From: a virus
Taxonomy: Duplodnaviria > Heunggongvirae > Uroviricota > Caudoviricetes
Virus record (IMG/VR): IMGVR_UViG_2565956720_000001
Strand: one strand, 5' to 3'
DNA length: 22,730 nt
Part shown: one piece after another, positions 947 to 9,655 of the stretch
How the letters are laid out: every line of letters begins with the position of its first letter
Position numbering within the stretch: the stretch's first letter is position 1
Notes under the pieces: generated by a model
Databases searched by the model: none
What the model was told of the DNA's origin: nothing
Seen by the model: only the letters and a program-made list of their open reading frames with translations
Made by a program: the position numbers and the translations under genes

Positions 947-1891
947 TCAGAAGAACCCTGCCTTGTCATTGATGTACTCTGCGTGAGTCTGGATATCACG
1001 CAGGCATTTGCTCACACCAACGATGTAGCAGAACATGGTGGTCAGCTCCGCCGCCGCGCCCGATACGTCATGCCCGTCGTCCTGCAACTGATTCAGCAGA
1101 TTCATCAGCAATGAGTTCTCCGTCAGGCCGAGAACACCAGACGGCGAGTGAATCAGGCTGCGGTAGCCGGGCTTCAGCGGATAACCATAACATTTTGTCT
1201 GTGTTTTAATTGCCTCACGAAGCGCATCTAACATCTTGACTGCCACTTCATCATTCTCTGATGCAGATCCAGCAGGGAGATACTCCCCTTCAAGCGGAAC
1301 CCGAGCAACAAGAGACAACGCTTCGGCGAATTGATCTTCATCAATTTCTTTGTACGAACAGCCAAAATGAGATTTCAGTGACGACCACATGGTGATCATC
1401 GCCTTAGCCTGTTTTTCTTTTGGCAGAGACTGACCGCGACTCATGACGAGTTGTTTAATGGCTTCCTGCTGTTCAGTGGTTATTTTACCCGGCAACGCCT
1501 TTTTAGCTTTGCGTGGGTTAACCACATGGCCTTTAGTCCAGTACTCGTAGAGCACATCGTCACACTCTTCCTGATACTGGATTACCTTGTCGCGGATTTC
1601 AGGACGGACTTTGTTAGGGCTGATGGTTTGCAACCAGCCAGCAAGTTTGCGAAGTGCCAAACAAATAATCTCACGGCGCTGTTCATCCCCAGGAAGCTGC
1701 ATTGTGATTTTCACAATGCAGGTTTTAAACCGCTGCTTCATTTTCGTAAACTGTGAAGCCCAATCCATACCCATTCCCTCAACGATAGGCTTCATTGGTG
1801 TGTACGGTTCGCCGTTGTGATTGACAACATAAAGTTCTACGCCGTGGAATGGCACGTTGATAGTAGATACCGCTGTTGCTATACTCGTCAT
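947..1891 (-). CDS. ant: Phage antirepressor (Ant-like; P22 antirepressor-type N-terminal domain plus C-terminal domain)
   Basis: 314-aa ORF with ATG at 1891 and TGA at 947-949. N-terminal INVPFHGVELYVVNHNGEPYTPMKPIVEGMGMDW matches the antirepressor N-domain signature as remembered. Sits downstream of an Arc-like gene, as arc-ant does in P22 immI. Confidence 0.85.
   Translation of the reverse strand: MTSIATAVSTINVPFHGVELYVVNHNGEPYTPMKPIVEGMGMDWASQFTKMKQRFKTCIVKITMQLPGDEQRREIICLALRKLAGWLQTISPNKVRPEIRDKVIQYQEECDDVLYEYWTKGHVVNPRKAKKALPGKITTEQQEAIKQLVMSRGQSLPKEKQAKAMITMWSSLKSHFGCSYKEIDEDQFAEALSLVARVPLEGEYLPAGSASENDEVAVKMLDALREAIKTQTKCYGYPLKPGYRSLIHSPSGVLGLTENSLLMNLLNQLQDDGHDVSGAAAELTTMFCYIVGVSKCLRDIQTHAEYINDKAGFF
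1857..1885 (+). promoter_or_regulatory. Candidate promoter for a Sar-like antisense RNA (TTGATA -17 bp- TATACT), inside the 5' end of ant on the opposite strand
   Basis: TTGATA at 1857-1862 and TATACT at 1880-1885 with 17-bp spacer; predicted start about 1892, immediately antisense to the ant ribosome-binding region. Confidence 0.35.
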
Positions 1892-1967
1892 GTCGTTAAT
1901 TCCTATACGTAGTTTTACGATACTGAAGCCCTGACGGTCTGGCCACCGTTGGGCTTCGCTGTTTTAT
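1892..1967 (+). ncRNA. sar: Candidate Sar-like antisense RNA complementary to the ant translation-initiation region (about 75 nt)
   Basis: Promoter at 1857-1885; hairpin GAAGCCC…GGGCTTC (1925-1957, inner stem ACGGT/ACCGT) followed by GCTGTTTTAT on the plus strand only. Same layout as the P22 sar RNA between arc and ant. Inferred, not experimentally supported. Confidence 0.35.
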
Positions 1968-2131
1968 GCCACGCTATTCTTCTCACCAGTGAGTCCATAC
2001 ACTTTCCTCAGCTGATAGATAATCTCTGTATTGAACTTTCGGCATTCTTTTTCGCCATTTCTTTCAATAGCTAACTTCACATCGTCCGGAAAACGAACTC
2101 GTCGTTGACACATCTCTTTTGCTTTTTGCAT
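1964..2131 (-). CDS. arc: Arc-like ribbon-helix-helix repressor (55 aa)
   Basis: Start re-placed at ATG 2131 (AAGGAG 7 nt upstream); the track's longer start has no ribosome-binding site. Product MQKAKEMCQRRVRFPDDVKLAIERNGEKECRKFNTEIIYQLRKVYGLTGEKNSVA follows the Arc pattern (R-x-P-x-x-V…NG…N-x-E-I-Y-Q). Directly upstream of ant on the same strand. Confidence 0.65.
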   Translation of the reverse strand: MQKAKEMCQRRVRFPDDVKLAIERNGEKECRKFNTEIIYQLRKVYGLTGEKNSVA

Positions 2132-2146
2132 TTCATATCTCCTTAG

Positions 2147-2214
2147 CCCCACCGTGGGGCAAAACAATTGTCACACCGTGCGTCATTGATGTCAAGCACA
2201 CGGTGAGGCATACT
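2147..2214. promoter_or_regulatory. Divergent, overlapping promoter/operator region between the arc-like and mnt-like genes
   Basis: Minus strand: TTGACA (reverse complement of 2191-2196), 17 bp, GACAAT, reading toward arc. Plus strand: TTGATG (2186-2191), 17 bp, CATACT (2209-2214), reading toward mnt. Palindrome GCCCCAC-C-GTGGGGC at 2147-2161; half-site CACCGTG at 2151-2157 and 2173-2179, inverted as CACGGTG at 2199-2205. Confidence 0.4.
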
Positions 2215-2251
2215 TCAATCATTGCAAGTAACTCAATATTTGGTGAAGAAC

Positions 2252-2683
2252 ATGAGCAGAGAAGATCCACAACTAAGGATCAGACTTCCCGTTGAAGTAA
2301 AAGAAAAAATAGAAATTTCTGCAAAAGCCAATAAGCGATCAATGAACGCTGAAATAGTACAACGTCTTGACACCAGCTTTCTGAAAGATATTCATGAAGA
2401 TGACGTAATTTCTGCTTATGAAGCAAAAATTATTGCAAACAATGCACGGCATGAAATATCAAATATTATTTTCAAAAGAACCTTTAATGAAATTAATAAG
2501 AAAATAACACTTGGACATACAAGTTTTTATATAAACCTTAATGACCTTGAACTGGAATCACTTGCAGATAATGATTACCAGATCATCTTTGAAAAAACAT
2601 TTAATAAGCTCAATGAACTAGGTTACATCATCTGTGAAAACTCATGGGATGCAGATGGTTTTGGAATTGAAATACCTGAATAG
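2252..2683 (+). CDS. mnt: Mnt-like ribbon-helix-helix repressor with an about 95-aa C-terminal extension of unknown function (143 aa)
   Basis: ATG at 2252 with GGTGA 5-6 nt upstream (the track start at 2222 is TTG). N-terminus MSREDPQLRIRLPVEVKEKIEISAKANKRSMNAEIVQRL aligns with remembered P22 Mnt (MARDDPHFNFRMPMEVREKLKFRAEANGRSMNSELLQIV). Roughly one-third G+C by eye. Confidence 0.8.
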   Translation: MSREDPQLRIRLPVEVKEKIEISAKANKRSMNAEIVQRLDTSFLKDIHEDDVISAYEAKIIANNARHEISNIIFKRTFNEINKKITLGHTSFYINLNDLELESLADNDYQIIFEKTFNKLNELGYIICENSWDADGFGIEIPE

Positions 2684-2694
2684 GAAGAACAAAA

Positions 2695-2720
2695 GGCGTG
2701 TACATATTACACGTCTTTAA
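2695..2720 (+). terminator. Candidate intrinsic terminator after the mnt-like gene
   Basis: GGCGTGTA-CATAT-TACACGTC hairpin followed by TTTAA; moderate T-tract. Confidence 0.35.
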
Positions 2721-2773
2721 TACAATTGAAAAACGCCACATTACTGATGTATGTTACAACAAGGAGCGATATT

Positions 2774-3337
2774 TTGAAAACCATATCTATATTAAAGGTT
2801 GCATTAGGCGTCGCTATTATTTTGACTCTCTCAATATTGTTTTATTTTTACCACAAAAAAACAGCTATTGCTCTTGATGGTCACGCGGCAAACTCATTTT
2901 TCTCAGAGTACATAGTGCCGCTATCAGGAAGCGGTATAACAAATAAATATACTGACTATGACATCAAATATGGAATTGATGATGGGGAGACTATTGTATT
3001 ACATGTAATCATTAAAAACCTAATGACAGTAAATAAAAATACAGACTTCAACGATAAAAATACAATACATCACAACAACAGCAAAACATTAATTTCTTAT
3101 AGTAGCAACATCTATACGGATAAATACCTAAAATACATCTCAGAAGATACAATAAAAGCAACCAGCGAAAAGTTAAAAAACATATATTGTGCATCCGGCA
3201 GTTTTCACAAATTATCGCCGCAAGAGCGTTTATTCTACGAAGCAAGAAAACAACGTAAGTCAATAATATTACATTATTATGCTGATTCAGGGGAGTCACT
3301 CATATTTAATATTGGGGTTTCCCCTGAATCATGCTAA
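2774..3337 (+). CDS. AT-rich signal-anchored/secreted protein of unknown function in the sieA-equivalent position (candidate superinfection-exclusion protein)
   Basis: ORF to TAA at 3335-3337. Best-supported start is TTG 2774, with AAGGAG (2761-2766) 7 nt upstream; alternatives are ATG 2747 (no ribosome-binding site) and the track's TTG 2726. N-terminus KTISILKVALGVAIILTLSILFYFYHKK is a signal anchor. Asn/Lys/Tyr-rich, low G+C. Confidence 0.6.
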   Translation: MKTISILKVALGVAIILTLSILFYFYHKKTAIALDGHAANSFFSEYIVPLSGSGITNKYTDYDIKYGIDDGETIVLHVIIKNLMTVNKNTDFNDKNTIHHNNSKTLISYSSNIYTDKYLKYISEDTIKATSEKLKNIYCASGSFHKLSPQERLFYEARKQRKSIILHYYADSGESLIFNIGVSPESC

Positions 3338-3348
3338 AGGCGTTTAAC

Positions 3349-6300
3349 TCACCGCATCACCGGATCCACCTGGTTTATTAGTGGCGCAATCCAGAACAGG
3401 TTATTGCCTGGTATCAGGGTTCGGACATTATGCACAATACGATCACCGGCATCACCATTCAACACTCCTGCGGTCACATCAATGATGCTATCCGCAAGAC
3501 CAAATGACGGTCCGAATAGAGATCCTACGAATCCACGACTGGCATACCTAGACTGTGTGCCAGTGCCAAATAAAGCCCCCAGCCCAACAGCACCACCAGT
3601 AGCCTTTTCAGCCATGTTGTTATATTCCATCAATGGCCCAAGAATACCGGATCTATCTATACCCTCAAGCACCAGCTTCTCTGGTGACCAGTCAACATTT
3701 TTCCCTTTCGATGCTTCTTTAAGCGCATAGACCAGTGAGCCAAGAGCAATCTGAAATGCAGTGCCATAATAAAATTGCGCAGTTCCTTCCTGTAGCCCAC
3801 CAAGTAGCGCACGGTTGTATGAAGCCGTTGTGAATGATTTAAACTGAAATATCGTTCGCCCCATTGGAGTACTCGCCCATAAAGGTGTGTCACCAATACC
3901 GGGGGTGATGATAGTGTTATTAACGTCTTTCAGAACCGCTGACTGGAATACTCCGGCAACGTACTGATCGTCCCATTTATCAAAGTTACCAATGTGCCAT
4001 CCATCAATTACCTCACCATGTTTCTCGAACTCACTGCGAATACGCGCAGCCATATTGTCGTTGATACCGAGTTTTGCCATGCGACGTGCAGAAAACGCAC
4101 CAGACAAAATACCGTCTGACGTGAGCATTCCGTTCATGGATTTGTTTATGTCATTAAATCGATCCATGAGTGTCAGCTTGCCGAAGGCATCAGTAATTCG
4201 CTCCATTCCTGCTTCGACTGCTGTTGTCCTGGAAGAACTGTCAACAAGATCACCAATTGCACGAGAACGTGAATGTAGTACAGTTTCCAATCCAATCCCC
4301 ATCTTCAACATCTCTTCTTTGCTGGCCTTAAATGCCGGTGATTGGGATATCTGAGAAGCATAGCCTTTCATGGTGTTACGGAAACCATTAACCATAACCC
4401 CTCTGGCCAGATCTGGAATAGCTGATACTGTCATTCCACCGAGTTTGGTCGTGAAGTTCACATCCCGCAGAAAAGCGCCAGCACGAACAAAAAACGAAGA
4501 CGGGTCATCAGGCATACCATATGTACCAACAAGACGATCGCGTAATGCTGTTATGTCTCTGAGATCATTTGCTCTTGATTTTGAAAGTCTGGACTGTTCT
4601 TTCCGTAATTCCTTTTCGTACTTTCGCATTAATGAATCGAGTTTACCCTGAGGAACAACTTCACCATTGCTCTCATAACGTGCTTTCAGATTTGCCACAC
4701 TTTCGTCATATTTCGCCTTTATTTTTTCAGGCACTTCCCGTAACAGACTGTCATATTCGTCTTCAATTAATTGCAGACGCTCAGCCATAGTTCGTTTGCC
4801 AAATGTTCTCGTCAACTCAATTTCTGCTGCCGCTTCACGGATATGACGTTGCAGCACGTAATTCACATCACTTTCGAGATAATCCCTGATAAGACTATCA
4901 GGCACATTTAATGTTCTTTCTTTCGTACTACCTGCGGCTTTTACAGAAAATACGCTGACAAAATCCTGTGGAACCTTAGCACCAGTAATTTTATTAATTA
5001 CGATATCCGCTGCAATTTCAGCATCCTCAGGATCCAGTGTTTTATTGCCTCTCGACCACCAGTCAACCAAAATACGTCGAAATTTATCGCGTTCACTGAT
5101 TATTTTTCCAACTTTATATATACGTGGGAAATAGCTTGCCTGACCTAATGCTTTCAGTTCTTCATCTGGCGGCAATAAACCAAGCTTTTGCATTTCAACT
5201 TTCACCCGATTTAATACAGTTCGCATCGCCTGCGCCGTTTCCTGAACAACAGGATTAGCATGAACATCACCGCTTCGCATCGCATTCCCAACCTGCTGAC
5301 GAAATGAATCAAAACTCATGTCACCACCATCAGCTTTATACTTTGCGTATGCCTGTTTATTTCCGACAACAACTGCAGCTTCTTCACGCTGCCATCCACG
5401 TGTACGGGTTTCTACAGCTATCGGTGTTTCAATCCCCCTTTCATTTCCTTTAAGGGTGAAATTATTTTCGGCTAACTCCAGCGTTGTTTTTCGCACTGTC
5501 TTTGACGGAGACTCCATTAACCTTGTCAAAGGAGTAAGATAGCTCCCTGCTTTCCATGCAGCCTTTCCAACCACCCCACCAGAAACAGGGGTTAAATCAT
5601 CCAGAGTCGCTGTATCAATTTTCATAGCACCAACACTACCACCATCGGAAAGCGAAGCGGCAGCCCTGTCAGTCGCTGATGTAATGCTCATATTATCAAG
5701 AGCATCAGCAACCTCACGTGTGGCTGCAGCCCGGACGGATGGCGAAAGCGCAACACCAGCACTGGCAAACACGCCGCTCATCATCGCACCCGCTGCAACG
5801 TGAGCGGCACTTTCACCCCATGAGCGTGTTATTTGCTGATTATTCAGTACAACCTCGCTTAATGCAGTACCGGCAGCACCAATCGCAATCTGTGAGCCAA
5901 TACGCGCCAGTGCCCCTCCTTGAGCACCGGGGATAAACATTGACGCAACAGTAACCGGATCCATTCCCGCAGCAATACTGGCAAGGGTTCCAACTACGCC
6001 AGCATCAGACAATAAACGTCTGTCTTCATTTTCATCATCTATCTGCTGCTTAATCCACGCCGTTTCCTCTGGCGATCGGGAATCTGCAAATTTCGCCCCC
6101 CAGTATTCATAACCGTGCAACTCATTTTTATCAGCATATGGGTTATAACCTTCGACCGGTTCAAACTGTCTGGCTGGGCGGAAAAAACCAGCCAGAATAT
6201 TGTTCTGTCGCATTGCAGCCCCCCATACGGAAGGCTCAGGTGGCAATGGCTCAGGATTAGCCCCTTCCGGAAGGGCAACATCAAACCCAGTTTGTTCCGG

Positions 6301-6363
6301 CAAAACATTACCTGACGGGATCAGTCCGTTATTAAGATCTTCAGCTTGTGCATAAACTGGCAT
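3349..6363 (-). CDS. Large internal virion / DNA-ejection protein (T7 gp16-position analogue, 1004 aa)
   Basis: Long ORF; its ATG (6363) overlaps the TAA of the upstream gene (TAATG). Last gene of the tubular-protein/core-protein series; Gly/Ala-rich N-terminal region. Confidence 0.75.
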   Translation of the reverse strand: MPVYAQAEDLNNGLIPSGNVLPEQTGFDVALPEGANPEPLPPEPSVWGAAMRQNNILAGFFRPARQFEPVEGYNPYADKNELHGYEYWGAKFADSRSPEETAWIKQQIDDENEDRRLLSDAGVVGTLASIAAGMDPVTVASMFIPGAQGGALARIGSQIAIGAAGTALSEVVLNNQQITRSWGESAAHVAAGAMMSGVFASAGVALSPSVRAAATREVADALDNMSITSATDRAAASLSDGGSVGAMKIDTATLDDLTPVSGGVVGKAAWKAGSYLTPLTRLMESPSKTVRKTTLELAENNFTLKGNERGIETPIAVETRTRGWQREEAAVVVGNKQAYAKYKADGGDMSFDSFRQQVGNAMRSGDVHANPVVQETAQAMRTVLNRVKVEMQKLGLLPPDEELKALGQASYFPRIYKVGKIISERDKFRRILVDWWSRGNKTLDPEDAEIAADIVINKITGAKVPQDFVSVFSVKAAGSTKERTLNVPDSLIRDYLESDVNYVLQRHIREAAAEIELTRTFGKRTMAERLQLIEDEYDSLLREVPEKIKAKYDESVANLKARYESNGEVVPQGKLDSLMRKYEKELRKEQSRLSKSRANDLRDITALRDRLVGTYGMPDDPSSFFVRAGAFLRDVNFTTKLGGMTVSAIPDLARGVMVNGFRNTMKGYASQISQSPAFKASKEEMLKMGIGLETVLHSRSRAIGDLVDSSSRTTAVEAGMERITDAFGKLTLMDRFNDINKSMNGMLTSDGILSGAFSARRMAKLGINDNMAARIRSEFEKHGEVIDGWHIGNFDKWDDQYVAGVFQSAVLKDVNNTIITPGIGDTPLWASTPMGRTIFQFKSFTTASYNRALLGGLQEGTAQFYYGTAFQIALGSLVYALKEASKGKNVDWSPEKLVLEGIDRSGILGPLMEYNNMAEKATGGAVGLGALFGTGTQSRYASRGFVGSLFGPSFGLADSIIDVTAGVLNGDAGDRIVHNVRTLIPGNNLFWIAPLINQVDPVMR

Positions 6364-9080
6364 TATTTAGATCCCCACGAAAAGTAATCTTTAAATTTGT
6401 CCATACGTTCGTTATGCAGGCGCTGATACTGCTCATCCAGAGCGCGATGCTTGTCTTTGAAGTTTCGTATAGCCTGTCCACGCATAATTTCTTCCTGCTC
6501 GTACTGCTCCCGTTCCTGCTGCATTTTCTTATAAGGTTCCCAATCTGCTAGTGATGGTTCCCAACGCATAGGACGCCCATGTTTGTTATAAAACGGCTGG
6601 ACCCGATCGATGCCATTTTCATCCTTAGTTCTTACCATAATGGCGTAATCACCATTACGGGGTGTTAACACGTCAGGGGTTATGAATAATTCTCCATTAA
6701 TACGACTCTCAGGGGTTTTTGTCTCAACTACAGGAGCATTACCTGACGTGATCCCAAGCAACGTCGGACTGGTTGTTATAATCTCTTTGCGCTCACCGTA
6801 CATCAGCCGTTCTTTTTCAGCTTTCCACTGCGCCGCCTGCCAGCCTGACGGCCCATATTGATAAAGCGCCTCCGGTGCATATTTCATAAACTGTGCATCT
6901 CCGTTAACCTCGCTGATACTCCAGGTGCGGGCTATCTGCTGGTTGGTCATTTGCTTCGCTACGTCAGCGTTACCACCAGCAACGCGGTAGTTAATGTCAT
7001 ACAGCGTCTGATAGTCATTACGGAATCTAGCTGCTTCCGGCGTCTGGTCATCCGCAGAAGGATCCCAACGGAACCACTGCGCCATATTGCTGACAGCAGA
7101 ATTCATCGCCTTGCTGCGATCATTTTTGTACTCTTTTGAACTCTGCGTTGATGCCAATTGAGCTTTAAGAGCATCGGTCTGGTTGTATGTCAGGTTCTGC
7201 GCCTGCTCGATAGCCGCATCAGCAGACATGCCAGAATCAGTTAGTTGCTTAACAGTCAGATAAAAACCCTGCATATCCTTCGGCATATTTCCAATAGATG
7301 CATTGTCTGTTTCATATAACCGACTAAACAGCTCCGCTGCATTTTTAACCACTTCCTGATTACTGGATCGGGATACTGCTGAAAGCTGCGTGATGACCTG
7401 CGAAGGCATTATGCCAGTCTGAGCCACAAGCCGAACAACCCCATCATGAGTGGAGGCATCATTAATACGAAAGTTCTGCGCCATTTCTGTGTAATCAGCA
7501 GCTTTCTGCATTGACTTGTTGCTTGGGTCTAATTTTTCACCTATTGTCAGCGCCTCATTGAATCTGCGTGAATCCCGTTGCGCCTGAATTGCTTCATTTG
7601 ATCTCTGAAGCAATGCAGACAATTTTCCGTAAGCATCGAGTTTTAACGCATAGTGAGGATCGTTAACCTCAGGCTTCACTTTCTGCATTTCTTCTTGCTG
7701 CTGAGAAGGAGGCAAATACTGAATTGCCTGGAATATTCTCGCGTTATCAATCGCTATATCCAGTTGATTGATTATTTTATCTGCGTTTTTTCCATACCCC
7801 CTGATGATGGTCTCCTGAGCCGGTATATAATCTGGAACCTCACCGTTATATAGCTGGGCCATGGTGTTATTAATAGCTGGCTCAAGCTGTTCTAATATTA
7901 ACTTCCTTTGCTTTTCTATCTGACTATTAGCAAGGTTATCTATTTGATAAATAGTCAGCGGATCCATTCCAGTTTTATTTTTTCTATATCGGGAAAGCCA
8001 CCCTTGTGTTTCTGATGGAAGATTTCGGATAAATTCTTCTTCTGATATTTCACCTTTACGTGGATCACCGACTTTGGCGATCAGTTTATCCACGTTACCC
8101 ATCCCCCAGTTATATGCTGCTCCGGTCAATATTTCTGAGCCGTACTTACCATACAGTTGATTTACATAGTCACTGGCAAGCATTTCATGCTGTTGTTCGT
8201 CCGTAGGGTTGTATTCAACGCCACGCTTGGCCGCCAGTTCTTTCCCTGTGCCCGGCATTAACTGGTATTTCCCCTGGGCCCTCTCTCCAGAAGATGTTTT
8301 CGGTCCTTCAAGAATACTACCATCAGGATTAAAATGACGATCACCTGATTCAACAAGGCGTATGGCACGCATGTCCATGCCTACAGAATCATTTTTCTGA
8401 AACAGACCATTTAGCCATCCTTCCGGATTAGCAGCGGCATAATTCTTCGCCCGCATTTCTGTGGCACTGCGATCATCACTTTCTATTTCTTCCAGAATGC
8501 GTTCTTGTGACCATCCCCTGGCAGCTCCATATCTGGCAATGGCTACCATTCTGGAATTTCTGGCTAAAGTGGCAGTTTGCGGGTCATTCCAGGCATCCGC
8601 TTCATTTTGTATCCATAATTTTCTCGTTGCCTGATATTGCTCATCTTCATAGGCATTTGTCTGCCCTATCTCATGTCTGAGAACTCCAGTACTGAACTGA
8701 ATTTTCTGTGTTCTGGCTTGTTGCAAAAACATATTTCTTGCTGCTTCATCAGTCAATGAAGCAGCTATTTCTTCCACATCCTGATCAAATCCAGATATGT
8801 ACTCTTGCCCCTTACCAATCGCATTTTTGCCTTGTTGTGCATAAAAACCGGTTTGAGGGTTATAAAGACGTTCATTGCTGCGCTGATTAAGCTGAAGGAT
8901 GGCATCCTGAGACAATGCAACATTCGCTTTCTGCCTGGCTTCACCATATGCCACCGCATACTGATCTGCGACATTCGCCAGCACCTGACCTGCTTGAGGA
9001 ACATCGAAGGTCTGAAAACCACCGGTTTGCACACCACGACTTTGCACCTGGCGTCCGGATGTAGTAGGAACAACAGGCAT
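6363..9080 (-). CDS. Internal virion protein with a lytic transglycosylase (SLT) domain (905 aa)
   Basis: ATG at 9080 overlaps the upstream TGA (ATGA). Residues about 240-330 carry the SLT motifs: E-S (RLVESGDRHFNPDG), GKYQLMPGT, AAYNWGMG. Confidence 0.85.
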   Translation of the reverse strand: MPVVPTTSGRQVQSRGVQTGGFQTFDVPQAGQVLANVADQYAVAYGEARQKANVALSQDAILQLNQRSNERLYNPQTGFYAQQGKNAIGKGQEYISGFDQDVEEIAASLTDEAARNMFLQQARTQKIQFSTGVLRHEIGQTNAYEDEQYQATRKLWIQNEADAWNDPQTATLARNSRMVAIARYGAARGWSQERILEEIESDDRSATEMRAKNYAAANPEGWLNGLFQKNDSVGMDMRAIRLVESGDRHFNPDGSILEGPKTSSGERAQGKYQLMPGTGKELAAKRGVEYNPTDEQQHEMLASDYVNQLYGKYGSEILTGAAYNWGMGNVDKLIAKVGDPRKGEISEEEFIRNLPSETQGWLSRYRKNKTGMDPLTIYQIDNLANSQIEKQRKLILEQLEPAINNTMAQLYNGEVPDYIPAQETIIRGYGKNADKIINQLDIAIDNARIFQAIQYLPPSQQQEEMQKVKPEVNDPHYALKLDAYGKLSALLQRSNEAIQAQRDSRRFNEALTIGEKLDPSNKSMQKAADYTEMAQNFRINDASTHDGVVRLVAQTGIMPSQVITQLSAVSRSSNQEVVKNAAELFSRLYETDNASIGNMPKDMQGFYLTVKQLTDSGMSADAAIEQAQNLTYNQTDALKAQLASTQSSKEYKNDRSKAMNSAVSNMAQWFRWDPSADDQTPEAARFRNDYQTLYDINYRVAGGNADVAKQMTNQQIARTWSISEVNGDAQFMKYAPEALYQYGPSGWQAAQWKAEKERLMYGERKEIITTSPTLLGITSGNAPVVETKTPESRINGELFITPDVLTPRNGDYAIMVRTKDENGIDRVQPFYNKHGRPMRWEPSLADWEPYKKMQQEREQYEQEEIMRGQAIRNFKDKHRALDEQYQRLHNERMDKFKDYFSWGSK

Positions 9081-9655
9081 CAGTAACCTCCTATTTTGAA
9101 TCGGGAGTCAGAATTCATAAAACCTGAGTTAGATAACATTGGCGTTCCACCACCAGATGCACTTCCTTTAGAGAACGGACTCCACGTCCCACCAAACATC
9201 TGGTACGCACCGTATGCCTTCAGAGGCGCAGTGAGCAATGTTGTTGCTGCTCCCATATTCCCCTGTTTACGGGCTGAACTGGCTTCTGCTTTATAGTTGG
9301 CAGCCTGAACCTGATAACCGTAAGCCTCGCGTTGCGCGTTATTCACCGTCGTCAGCGAATCAAGAGCGCCAAACTGGGCAGTGTCGCCAAATATATCCAG
9401 CGCGTTACCTGTAGATAAATCAGCGCCGGTAGCCCCCATTGTCGCCGCCTGTGTACCAAGCCGCTGTCGGGTCTCTCTGCGCCGTTGCTCAGCTTCAGCG
9501 TTACCTCTGTTTATTGCATCATTTGCCTGAGCTGTGGCTATATCTGCGTTCGCTTCTGCAACCTTCGAGGCATACTTTCCCTGTTGGTACTGGGTGTATG
9601 CCTGAATGCCACTCATGGCGAGCATTGCGCCACCAGCAATAACCGGATCGCACAT
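9080..9655 (-). CDS. Internal virion protein (T7 gp14-position analogue, 191 aa)
   Basis: ATG at 9655 overlaps the upstream stop; size and position match T7 gp14 (196 aa); Gly/Ala/Gln-rich. Confidence 0.7.
   Translation of the reverse strand: MCDPVIAGGAMLAMSGIQAYTQYQQGKYASKVAEANADIATAQANDAINRGNAEAEQRRRETRQRLGTQAATMGATGADLSTGNALDIFGDTAQFGALDSLTTVNNAQREAYGYQVQAANYKAEASSARKQGNMGAATTLLTAPLKAYGAYQMFGGTWSPFSKGSASGGGTPMLSNSGFMNSDSRFKIGGY

Follow-up and report, generated by a model that had tools for sequence, protein, structure and literature searches.

Two independent accessory units at the lysogeny side of a TL-2011b-type temperate podophage: an extended Mnt-type repressor gene and a candidate superinfection-exclusion gene

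What do two adjacent AT-rich genes do beside the ejection-protein genes of a temperate phage, and do they belong together? The question is raised by positions 2252-3337 of a 22,730-nucleotide (nt) stretch of viral DNA (Caudoviricetes; IMG/VR record IMGVR_UViG_2565956720_000001), which in its full length is called here the window. Gene 1 encodes an extended Mnt-type repressor of 143 amino acids (aa), and gene 2 encodes an N-terminally anchored and probably periplasmic protein of 187 aa. A preliminary description, made from the letters alone, had taken the pair for a single island in the slot that is occupied by sieA in phage P22. The stretch 2252-3337 is instead the junction of two independent units and no single island. 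The best explanation of the region is a lysogeny-side accessory block of a TL-2011b-type temperate podophage in which these two units adjoin, an account which, taken as a whole, we regard as evenly balanced between right and wrong.

Over positions 1900-3400 the window is 99.4% identical to Escherichia phage TL-2011b, the prophage of an O103:H25 enterohemorrhagic Escherichia coli (EHEC) outbreak strain. The segment 2200-3345 was found in 36 of 5426 complete E. coli genomes, complete and in single copy each time, and its carriers include EHEC, enterotoxigenic (ETEC), avian pathogenic (APEC), and extraintestinal pathogenic (ExPEC) strains. The copies in AR_0085 and strain 3908 show 100% identity to the window. 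Searching by tblastn with the 1004-aa protein encoded next to gene 2 gave matches in Vibrio, Klebsiella, and other podophages, with no epsilon15 among the matches listed. A classification of TL-2011b as epsilon15-like was not confirmed, the spanin family being the only link between the two phages.

The low content of guanine plus cytosine (G+C), estimated by eye in the preliminary description as roughly one-third, is borne out by computation for each gene: it amounts to 0.322 in gene 1 (0.236 at third codon positions) and 0.326 in gene 2, versus 0.484 for the whole window and 0.455-0.52 for the virion genes. The grouping of the two genes fares differently. Prophages of Yersinia, Enterobacter, Morganella, and Proteus have a gene 1 homologue but no gene 2; the reverse is seen at Providencia, Proteus, and metagenome loci, which have a gene 2 homologue but no gene 1. 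Seven gene 2 loci were compared, namely, the window, Providencia, Proteus, and four metagenome contigs, and a Mnt-like gene is missing at five of them. The functional coupling of the two genes that had been supposed is likewise not upheld, as the families are distributed independently.

These distributions bear directly on the reading of genes 1 and 2 as one operon, in which a ribbon-helix-helix (RHH) antitoxin or regulator would be followed by a toxin or defense effector. The classic type II toxin-antitoxin arrangement puts an RHH gene ahead of an effector, and the layout here fits it; the genes lie on the same strand, 90 nt apart, both are AT-rich, and they occur together in all 36 E. coli carriers. 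Outside E. coli, however, the two families are independently distributed, contrary to the conserved pair of a toxin-antitoxin system. Moreover, a hairpin and a promoter-like site lie between the genes, the product of gene 2 is apparently exported, and the conserved partner of gene 1 is a divergent arc-ant pair. PADLOC gave zero matches for gene 1, and a ParE Pfam match in one of 11 family members (E 0.084) is noise. The one-operon reading is already largely refuted by the family distributions and is very improbable.

The hairpin between the genes (2692-2718; inverted repeat I6, with an 11-bp stem and a 5-nt loop in the RNA fold) is terminator-like and occupies the same position as the annotated mnt terminator of P22. 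Its T-run is better on the minus strand, which also gives a terminator-like match, and the whole 101-nt stretch folds at -16.7 kcal/mol (z -1.7), which is not significant. The promoter scan yields a candidate promoter for gene 2 on the plus strand (2699-2726; TGTACA, 16 nt, TACAAT), whose position is equivalent to that of the P22 sieA promoter. Its -10 element reads TATAAT in four divergent E. coli alleles, and the count of promoter-scan matches is no higher than in shuffles. None of the hairpin and promoter signals can singly be distinguished from chance by statistics. The Providencia and Proteus homologues of gene 2 must have their own promoter, because they adjoin a divergently oriented gene.

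Gene 2 runs on the plus strand from a TTG at 2774 to 3337, with AAGGAG (2761-2766) 7 nt ahead of the start. An upstream in-frame ATG (2747) was rejected as the start codon and the TTG confirmed, because four divergent E. coli alleles have 4 nt inserted between the two, so that the ATG is out of frame. The Kyte-Doolittle scan shows a single hydrophobic segment at residues 1-28. Past residue 33 the protein is rich in Asn, Tyr, and Lys, as had been described, and also in Ser and Ile. It has no match in Pfam or NCBIfam, and its sole PHROG is the unannotated phrog_8033. A word-indexed search returned near-identical proteins only, and an exhaustive HMMER search of 1.84 billion representatives recovered 17 family proteins with 28-48% identity. 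They are confined to Enterobacterales (E. coli, Superficieibacter, Serratia, Klebsiella, Morganella, Providencia, and Proteus), and nearly all are labelled "hypothetical protein". The family is small, rare, fast-evolving, and without annotation.

Several N-termini of the family read by inspection as cleavable signal peptides, for example, MKKTLLILLLSSPLATFA with cleavage before A and ...SLATNAVA with cleavage before G. In the Providencia and Proteus homologues the N-terminal segment has a positive N-side and an acidic C-side. Cys139 is invariant in the family and the C-terminal Cys187 nearly so, most members being devoid of further cysteine. The N-terminal segment, the signal-peptide-like homologues, and the Cys pair therefore suggest that the domain of gene 2 is periplasmic and probably disulfide-bonded, in agreement with the N-terminal anchor and the extracytoplasmic domain that were proposed at the outset.

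Signal peptides and the Cys pair speak at the same time against gene 2 as a membrane-tethered TIR defense effector similar to ThsB of the Thoeris system. PADLOC reports a ThsB1 match at residues 54-128 (E 0.005); it concerns one of 11 family members and falls within a low-complexity insert, and this assignment, which was rejected, is barely credible. A lysis accessory of the i-spanin type is scarcely more plausible. Rz-type i-spanins consist of an N-terminal transmembrane (TM) segment and a periplasmic domain, and the architecture of gene 2 resembles theirs. The holin, endolysin, and Rz-like spanin cassette of TL-2011b lies about 10 kb away, however, and gene 2 is antisense to the late operon and is without an o-spanin partner, so that a two-component i-spanin was rejected on the location of the lysis cassette as well as on the missing partner. 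In PMC6139136 the TL-2011b cassette is grouped with the Bcep176/epsilon15 spanin family.

The single-sequence AlphaFold2 (AF2) model of gene 2 is poor, with a predicted local distance difference test score (pLDDT) of 59. A likeness to the PA3611/AspS (type II secretion pilotin) fold is a lead only, derived from this low-confidence model and without sequence-level support. Foldseek against BFVD gave nothing at E <0.3. An iota-carbonic anhydrase (NTF2-like) match of the family profile was rejected, its E value of 2.2e-6 being the sum of three repeat matches with a domain E value of about 1 each.

On the minus strand, the T7-type internal core or ejection protein genes occupy 3349-9655 and are the constant neighbors of gene 2. 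They comprise the 1004-aa core protein gene (3349-6363), the 905-aa core protein gene (6363-9080) with an SLT domain (Pfam SLT, E 1.2e-7, above cut-off), and a gp14-like 191-aa gene (9080-9655; Pfam T7_gp14, E 7.1e-8, above cut-off); the PHROG "internal virion protein with endolysin domain" is also matched in this block (E 1.4e-209). At all seven loci the member of the gene 2 family and the last large internal core protein gene stand convergent, 2-34 nt apart, and the core gene is preceded by gp14-like and SLT-bearing genes. The core-protein neighbors are 42-51% identical to those of the window, and the gene 2 homologues 28-30%.

The slot of gene 2 is a swap site for envelope proteins, because related prophages carry other membrane or exported proteins there. 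About 10 of 46 genomes with the same core-protein gene are without genes 1 and 2. Strains A_5 and MS 196-1 have in the slot, in the same orientation, a 175-aa protein with an N-terminal TM segment, and UTME-9 has a 98-aa protein with two TM segments; the adjacent core gene of these relatives matches with 99.2-99.7% DNA identity over its 3' 1.15 kb. No relationship between the gene 2 family and the 175-aa A_5 protein was detected by hhalign, and the 98-aa UTME-9 protein is also unrelated to gene 2. The slot had been called sieA-equivalent, and both this exchange of membrane proteins and the P22-like gene order and orientations support the term. A second exported protein of 175-180 aa, with a signal peptide and a CxxC-like stretch (CSECPD/CKQCSS), is encoded divergently from the gene 2 homologue in Providencia (L008, 6352-6879) and Proteus (L010, 6339-6881); it has no Pfam or PHROG match.

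Constant adjacency to the ejection genes also serves to weigh the possibility that gene 2 is a lysogenic-conversion or host-fitness "moron", that is, an envelope protein altering host surface, stress, or virulence, as Bor or Lom of lambda. Such a role would suit an AT-rich gene that appears independently transcribed and exported, the pathogenic EHEC, ETEC, APEC, and ExPEC strains among its carriers, and the other cargo of the same accessory region, which includes a YafO-family toxin and an O-acetyltransferase. The gene 2 family, however, always lies beside the last ejection-protein gene, though the other accessory genes differ from phage to phage. A phage-directed role explains this constant adjacency more easily than a role in the host niche, and the moron reading is judged unlikely.

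The composition and variation of gene 2 were examined as well. The homologues have a G+C content of 0.285-0.372 versus 0.35-0.52 for their own phage and are more AT-rich in every locus; one of them is AT-rich though its flanking core genes have 0.50-0.52 G+C. Low G+C is thus a trait of the gene 2 family and not evidence of recent import, because the gene is AT-rich in every phage examined, and the acquisition from a low-GC source that had been suggested is not sustained. The corresponding alternative holds that both open reading frames (ORFs) came recently from a low-GC donor and are possibly decaying passengers. It draws on the difference between the 0.32 of genes 1 and 2 and the 0.48 of the window, and on the nearest non-E. 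coli relatives of gene 2, which include Providencia, Proteus, and Morganella. Against it stand the intact state of both ORFs in 36 of 36 carriers (at 96.5-100% identity for gene 2) with a ratio of nonsynonymous to synonymous polymorphism (pN/pS) below 1, the AT-richness of gene 2 homologues relative to their own phage in every host, and the Y. pestis gene 1 homologue, which is also below its flanks (0.398 versus 0.463). Recent import is improbable.

Codon variation was counted over seven gene 2 alleles. Amino-acid-changing and silent variable codons number 15:13 in gene 2 and 27:73 in the 1004-aa gene (Fisher p = 0.012), with 3:9 in gene 1, and pN/pS is 0.18-0.79, 0.06-0.12, and 0-0.13, respectively. 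Gene 2 is under purifying selection yet tolerates or favors more change than its neighbors. One metagenome allele carries a 7-codon deletion.

Gene 2 is at present best explained as a factor of superinfection exclusion that would act at DNA entry. This explanation is drawn from position, topology, synteny, and analogy, and its chance of being correct is put at even or slightly less. According to this proposal, gene 2 would be an inner-membrane-anchored protein with its own promoter and a periplasmic, probably disulfide-bonded domain, and it would act against the T7-type ejectosome of incoming related phages, which consists of the gp14-like, SLT-bearing, and 1004-aa proteins. The interference would take place in the periplasm or at the inner membrane.

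The other unit is represented by gene 1, which begins with an ATG at 2252 and ends at 2683 on the plus strand. The Pfam family Arc (PF03869) is matched at residues 2-46 (E 1.1e-14; 54.5 bits, above the curated cut-off of 20.4), which places the protein in the Arc/Mnt RHH family. Its best solved relative is P22 Mnt (PDB 1mnt, E 3.5e-7), Arc structures following at E about 2e-3. The Mnt-type RHH N-terminus reported previously is thereby substantiated. BLASTP aligns residues 1-86 with residues 1-83 of P22 Mnt (32% identity, E 3e-14), reaching the end of Mnt, and phrog_795 positions 13-96 are matched by both gene 1 residues 1-84 and P22 Mnt 1-82. By these alignments gene 1 contains a complete Mnt, probably with an equivalent of its C-terminal helix, and only about 59 residues (85-143) are additional, because residues 1-84 are co-linear with the full P22 protein; the earlier figure of about 95 extra residues was too high. 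In Mnt the C-terminal helix follows the RHH and mediates tetramerization; for gene 1, AF2 predicts a helix at 55-87, in which identity to Mnt is low. Members of the Mnt subfamily are compact, with about 83 aa and no additional domain, and the 143-aa product exceeds this size; its best PHROG is a separate one, phrog_1388, matched over 143 of 143 positions (E 5e-72).

The AF2 model of gene 1, built on 28 homologues, has a mean pLDDT of 81. Helices occupy 14-26, 31-42, 55-87 (the long helix), and 106-123, and strands after the long helix lie at 91-95 and 136-140. The RHH part covers about 1-46 and the Mnt-like long helix 55-87, and the extra beta-alpha-beta unit follows at about 88-143; no convincing fold match was obtained for the extension (85-143). 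This extension had been described as novel and free of recognizable motifs; it is uncharacterized indeed, but it is common. Homologues of gene 1 form 262 protein clusters at E <=1e-3, and the 120 clusters listed are nearly all full-length, with 58-69% identity apart from the near-identical clusters of the window itself. Their hosts are spread over Enterobacterales and include Citrobacter, Enterobacter, Salmonella, Klebsiella, Yersinia (including Y. pestis), Proteus, Morganella, Serratia, and others. The alignment has 38 invariant columns, many of them within the C-terminal extension, and all 28 aligned homologues begin with MSREDPQ. In the RefSeq/GenBank record of TL-2011b, gene 1 (gp40, NC_019445 30507-30848) is begun at an internal Met and so reduced to 113 aa; this truncated start drops the RHH beta-strand (window 2252-2341), and the gene is labelled "hypothetical protein".

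Gene 1 has its conserved partners on the opposite side from gene 2. Divergent from it on the minus strand lies an Arc-like small repressor gene of 55 aa (1964-2131), with PHROG Arc-like repressor matches and the TL-2011b label "Arc-like repressor". It is followed by ant (947-1891, minus strand), the last gene of this immI-like module, which encodes a 314-aa antirepressor (Pfam P22_AR_N, E 3.7e-44; TL-2011b label "anti-repressor Ant"). The module was compared with those of four other genera: three siphophage prophages, in Y. pestis (lambdoid), Enterobacter, and Proteus, and one Morganella-type myophage contig. In all four the gene 1 homologue is divergent from a 55-58-aa gene about 125 nt away, next to which comes a Bro-N/antirepressor gene; the insertion site of the module lies among tail genes, and the gene 3' of the Mnt-like gene differs in each genus. 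Clear homology to the proteins of the window is seen for the 55-aa protein of Y. pestis and for the C-terminal half of the Y. pestis antirepressor. The long-Mnt antirepressor switch is widespread and uncharacterized.

Between gene 1 and the arc-like gene lies a conserved control region (2146-2209) with three related sites and putative protein binding, recognized from its repeats and from the alignment of five intergenic regions. A block of about 65 bp shows hardly any variation among E. coli, Y. pestis, Enterobacter, Morganella, and Proteus. The three site cores, CCCCACCGTGGGG (2147-2159), CACACCGTGCG (2172-2182), and CACACGGTGAGG (2197-2208), belong to repeat family D1 and are centered at 2153, 2177, and 2202, with a spacing of 24 and 25 nt; the region also contains the inverted repeats I4, I5, and I7. 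Site A reads GCCCCACCGTGGGGC (2146-2160), and site B with its flanks reads TTGTCACACCGTGCGTCATTG (2168-2188). Site C (2195-2212) is CCCCACGGTGGGGCATAA in the other genera and degenerate in the window, where this third operator-like site is GCACACGGTGAGGC in comparison with the perfect palindrome CCCCACGGTGGGGC of the four other genera.

Two candidate promoters overlap these sites. Candidate Pant, sigma-70-like and found by the promoter scan on the minus strand, has its -35 TTGACA at 2195-2190 and its -10 GACAAT at 2172-2167; site B falls within this spacer, and site A lies immediately past the predicted start. Candidate Pmnt, read from the alignment on the plus strand, has -35 TTGATG at 2186-2191 and, after 17 nt, -10 CATACT at 2209-2214, with site C within the spacer; its -10 is CATAAT in the other four genera. 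The weaker Pmnt -10 and the degenerate site C may indicate altered autoregulation in the E. coli phage. The Mnt-type layout is present, with gene 1 divergent from arc-ant and a palindromic control region between them, while repression itself is predicted and the assignment of proteins to sites is putative.

On this evidence gene 1 would serve, as the equivalent of Mnt, for maintenance repression in a mobile antirepressor switch of three genes, with the mnt-like gene on one side and the arc-like gene followed by ant on the other. In the lysogen it would sit as an oligomer on the three sites and shut off Pant. The extra C-terminal beta-alpha-beta unit may add to or alter oligomerization, in order to span three sites 24-25 bp apart.

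Several points weigh against the proposals for the two genes. No homology between gene 2 and a known exclusion protein was detected in PHROG, in PADLOC, or by BLASTP against SieA. The charges around its anchor are ambiguous, with K2 and K8 on one side and H27, K28, and K29 on the other, so the periplasmic placing rests on the homologues and the Cys pair, and the poor AF2 model adds to the doubt. Its pN/pS is below 1, and its faster change may reflect relaxed constraint and not an arms race. The strict synteny with the ejection genes could represent shared ancestry of a gene block with no functional coupling. As to gene 1, mnt expression was undetectable in the lysogen of a P22-like E. coli phage (PMC12922286), and because of this, Mnt-type genes are not always on; its operator assignment and oligomeric state are putative.

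The surroundings of the two genes conform to an accessory region. In TL-2011b (L031, 29853-37809) everything from the last core-protein gene to the tailspike is accessory cargo and consists of the sie-like slot, mnt/arc/ant, a small TM protein, the YafO-family toxin, and more Bro-N proteins; the O-acetyltransferase sits past the tailspike. The accessory content between core protein and tailspike varies among otherwise near-identical prophages. At the beginning of the window, positions 1-171 and 946-1116 form a 171-nt inverted repeat with 96% identity, which corresponds to the 3' ends of two convergent antirepressor genes and flanks 774 bp in which lie two small hydrophobic ORFs, one of 62 aa (284-472) and one of 110 aa that has two TM segments (474-806). 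The cargo between the ant 3' ends is seen in both orientations in related E. coli prophages (L027 versus L029, L006 versus L007), which suggests inversion or recombination between these ends. At the other side, 45 bp from the 3' end of the 1004-aa gene (window 3355-3399) are kept at 100% identity in 34 E. coli genomes without that gene. In the one such genome that was examined (L030, 4001-4045) they adjoin the gene of the 98-aa two-TM cargo protein (WP_001555166), and the virion genes of that prophage are different ones (DUF919 family). The shared 45 bp look like a mosaic recombination junction.

Two wider readings are advanced together and tentatively, their joint correctness being possible but somewhat doubtful. 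Members of phrog_8033 and their Providencia, Proteus, Morganella, and Serratia relatives might be a new class of periplasm-facing exclusion proteins dedicated to T7-type ejectosomes, which would travel with the gp14/15/16-like core genes of temperate podophages and, from the periplasmic side, block the trans-periplasmic DNA conduit in its assembly or its function, or else its SLT transglycosylase. The extra domain of the long Mnt might serve a higher-order repressor over three operators, or partner sensing. The T7-type DNA-delivery machine is known mainly through structures of lytic T7. Should gene 2 exclude phages by acting on the ejectosome from the periplasmic side, this machine would have a natural inhibitor in gene 2, and escape mutants would reveal which regions of the core proteins are exposed and vulnerable. 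Among prophages of Enterobacterales the long-Mnt module is common, one Y. pestis variant being present on >500 contigs and one Enterobacter variant on >750. It probably governs prophage induction via antirepressors, a control that matters for strains bearing Shiga toxin (Stx) phages and for other pathogenic strains. Taken by itself, this is a prophage accessory region of an ordinary kind, well supported by synteny, and the functions proposed for it are putative.

The closest known counterpart of the whole arrangement is P22. Its immI region (mnt/arc-ant, with a Mnt of 83 aa) resembles the window in the divergent arc-like and ant genes beside gene 1, in the overlapping divergent promoters with palindromic operators, which in the window are candidates, and in the location of the module between ejection-protein genes and tailspike. 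The control region follows the immI logic with a different operator set. The P22 order 7-20-16 / sieA <- orf59a <- mnt / arc -> ant -> 9 recurs in the window with the same orientations, the ejection proteins being of T7 type, unlike those of P22.

P22 SieA blocks DNA injection, and the escape mutations lie in the ejection proteins gp16 and gp20; it occurs in three sequence types, always between genes 16 and 9 (PMC10883804). Gene 2 likewise lies between the last ejection-protein gene and the tailspike, and its expression from the prophage is predicted. Like SieA (phrog_7745), it is a small envelope protein whose gene is convergent to the last ejection-protein gene, downstream of mnt and past a putative terminator, with a candidate promoter of its own, in a slot that is variable among relatives. 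The proteins themselves differ: they have no sequence similarity (BLASTP E 0.15; phrog_7745 versus phrog_8033), and the FxRYPxEAxxFNK motif of SieA (PMC10883804) is missing from the gene 2 sequence. SieA has three or four TM helices compared with one N-terminal hydrophobic segment in gene 2, the bulk of which is predicted to be periplasmic and not in membrane and cytoplasm. Gene 2 thus differs from SieA in sequence, in motif, and in the number of TM helices and is no homologue of it, position being the one feature that agrees. If the exclusion proposal is true, gene 2 would be a second, non-homologous solution to the task of SieA.

T4 Sp (spackle), Imm, and the lactococcal Sie2009-type proteins are small phage proteins, exported or N-terminally anchored, whose action outside the cytoplasm blocks genome entry, and Sp inhibits the cell-wall hydrolase of the incoming phage. 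The 905-aa core protein encoded near gene 2, with its SLT transglycosylase domain, offers a parallel to Sp, and gene 2 would be a functional analogue of P22 SieA or T4 Sp and a homologue of neither.

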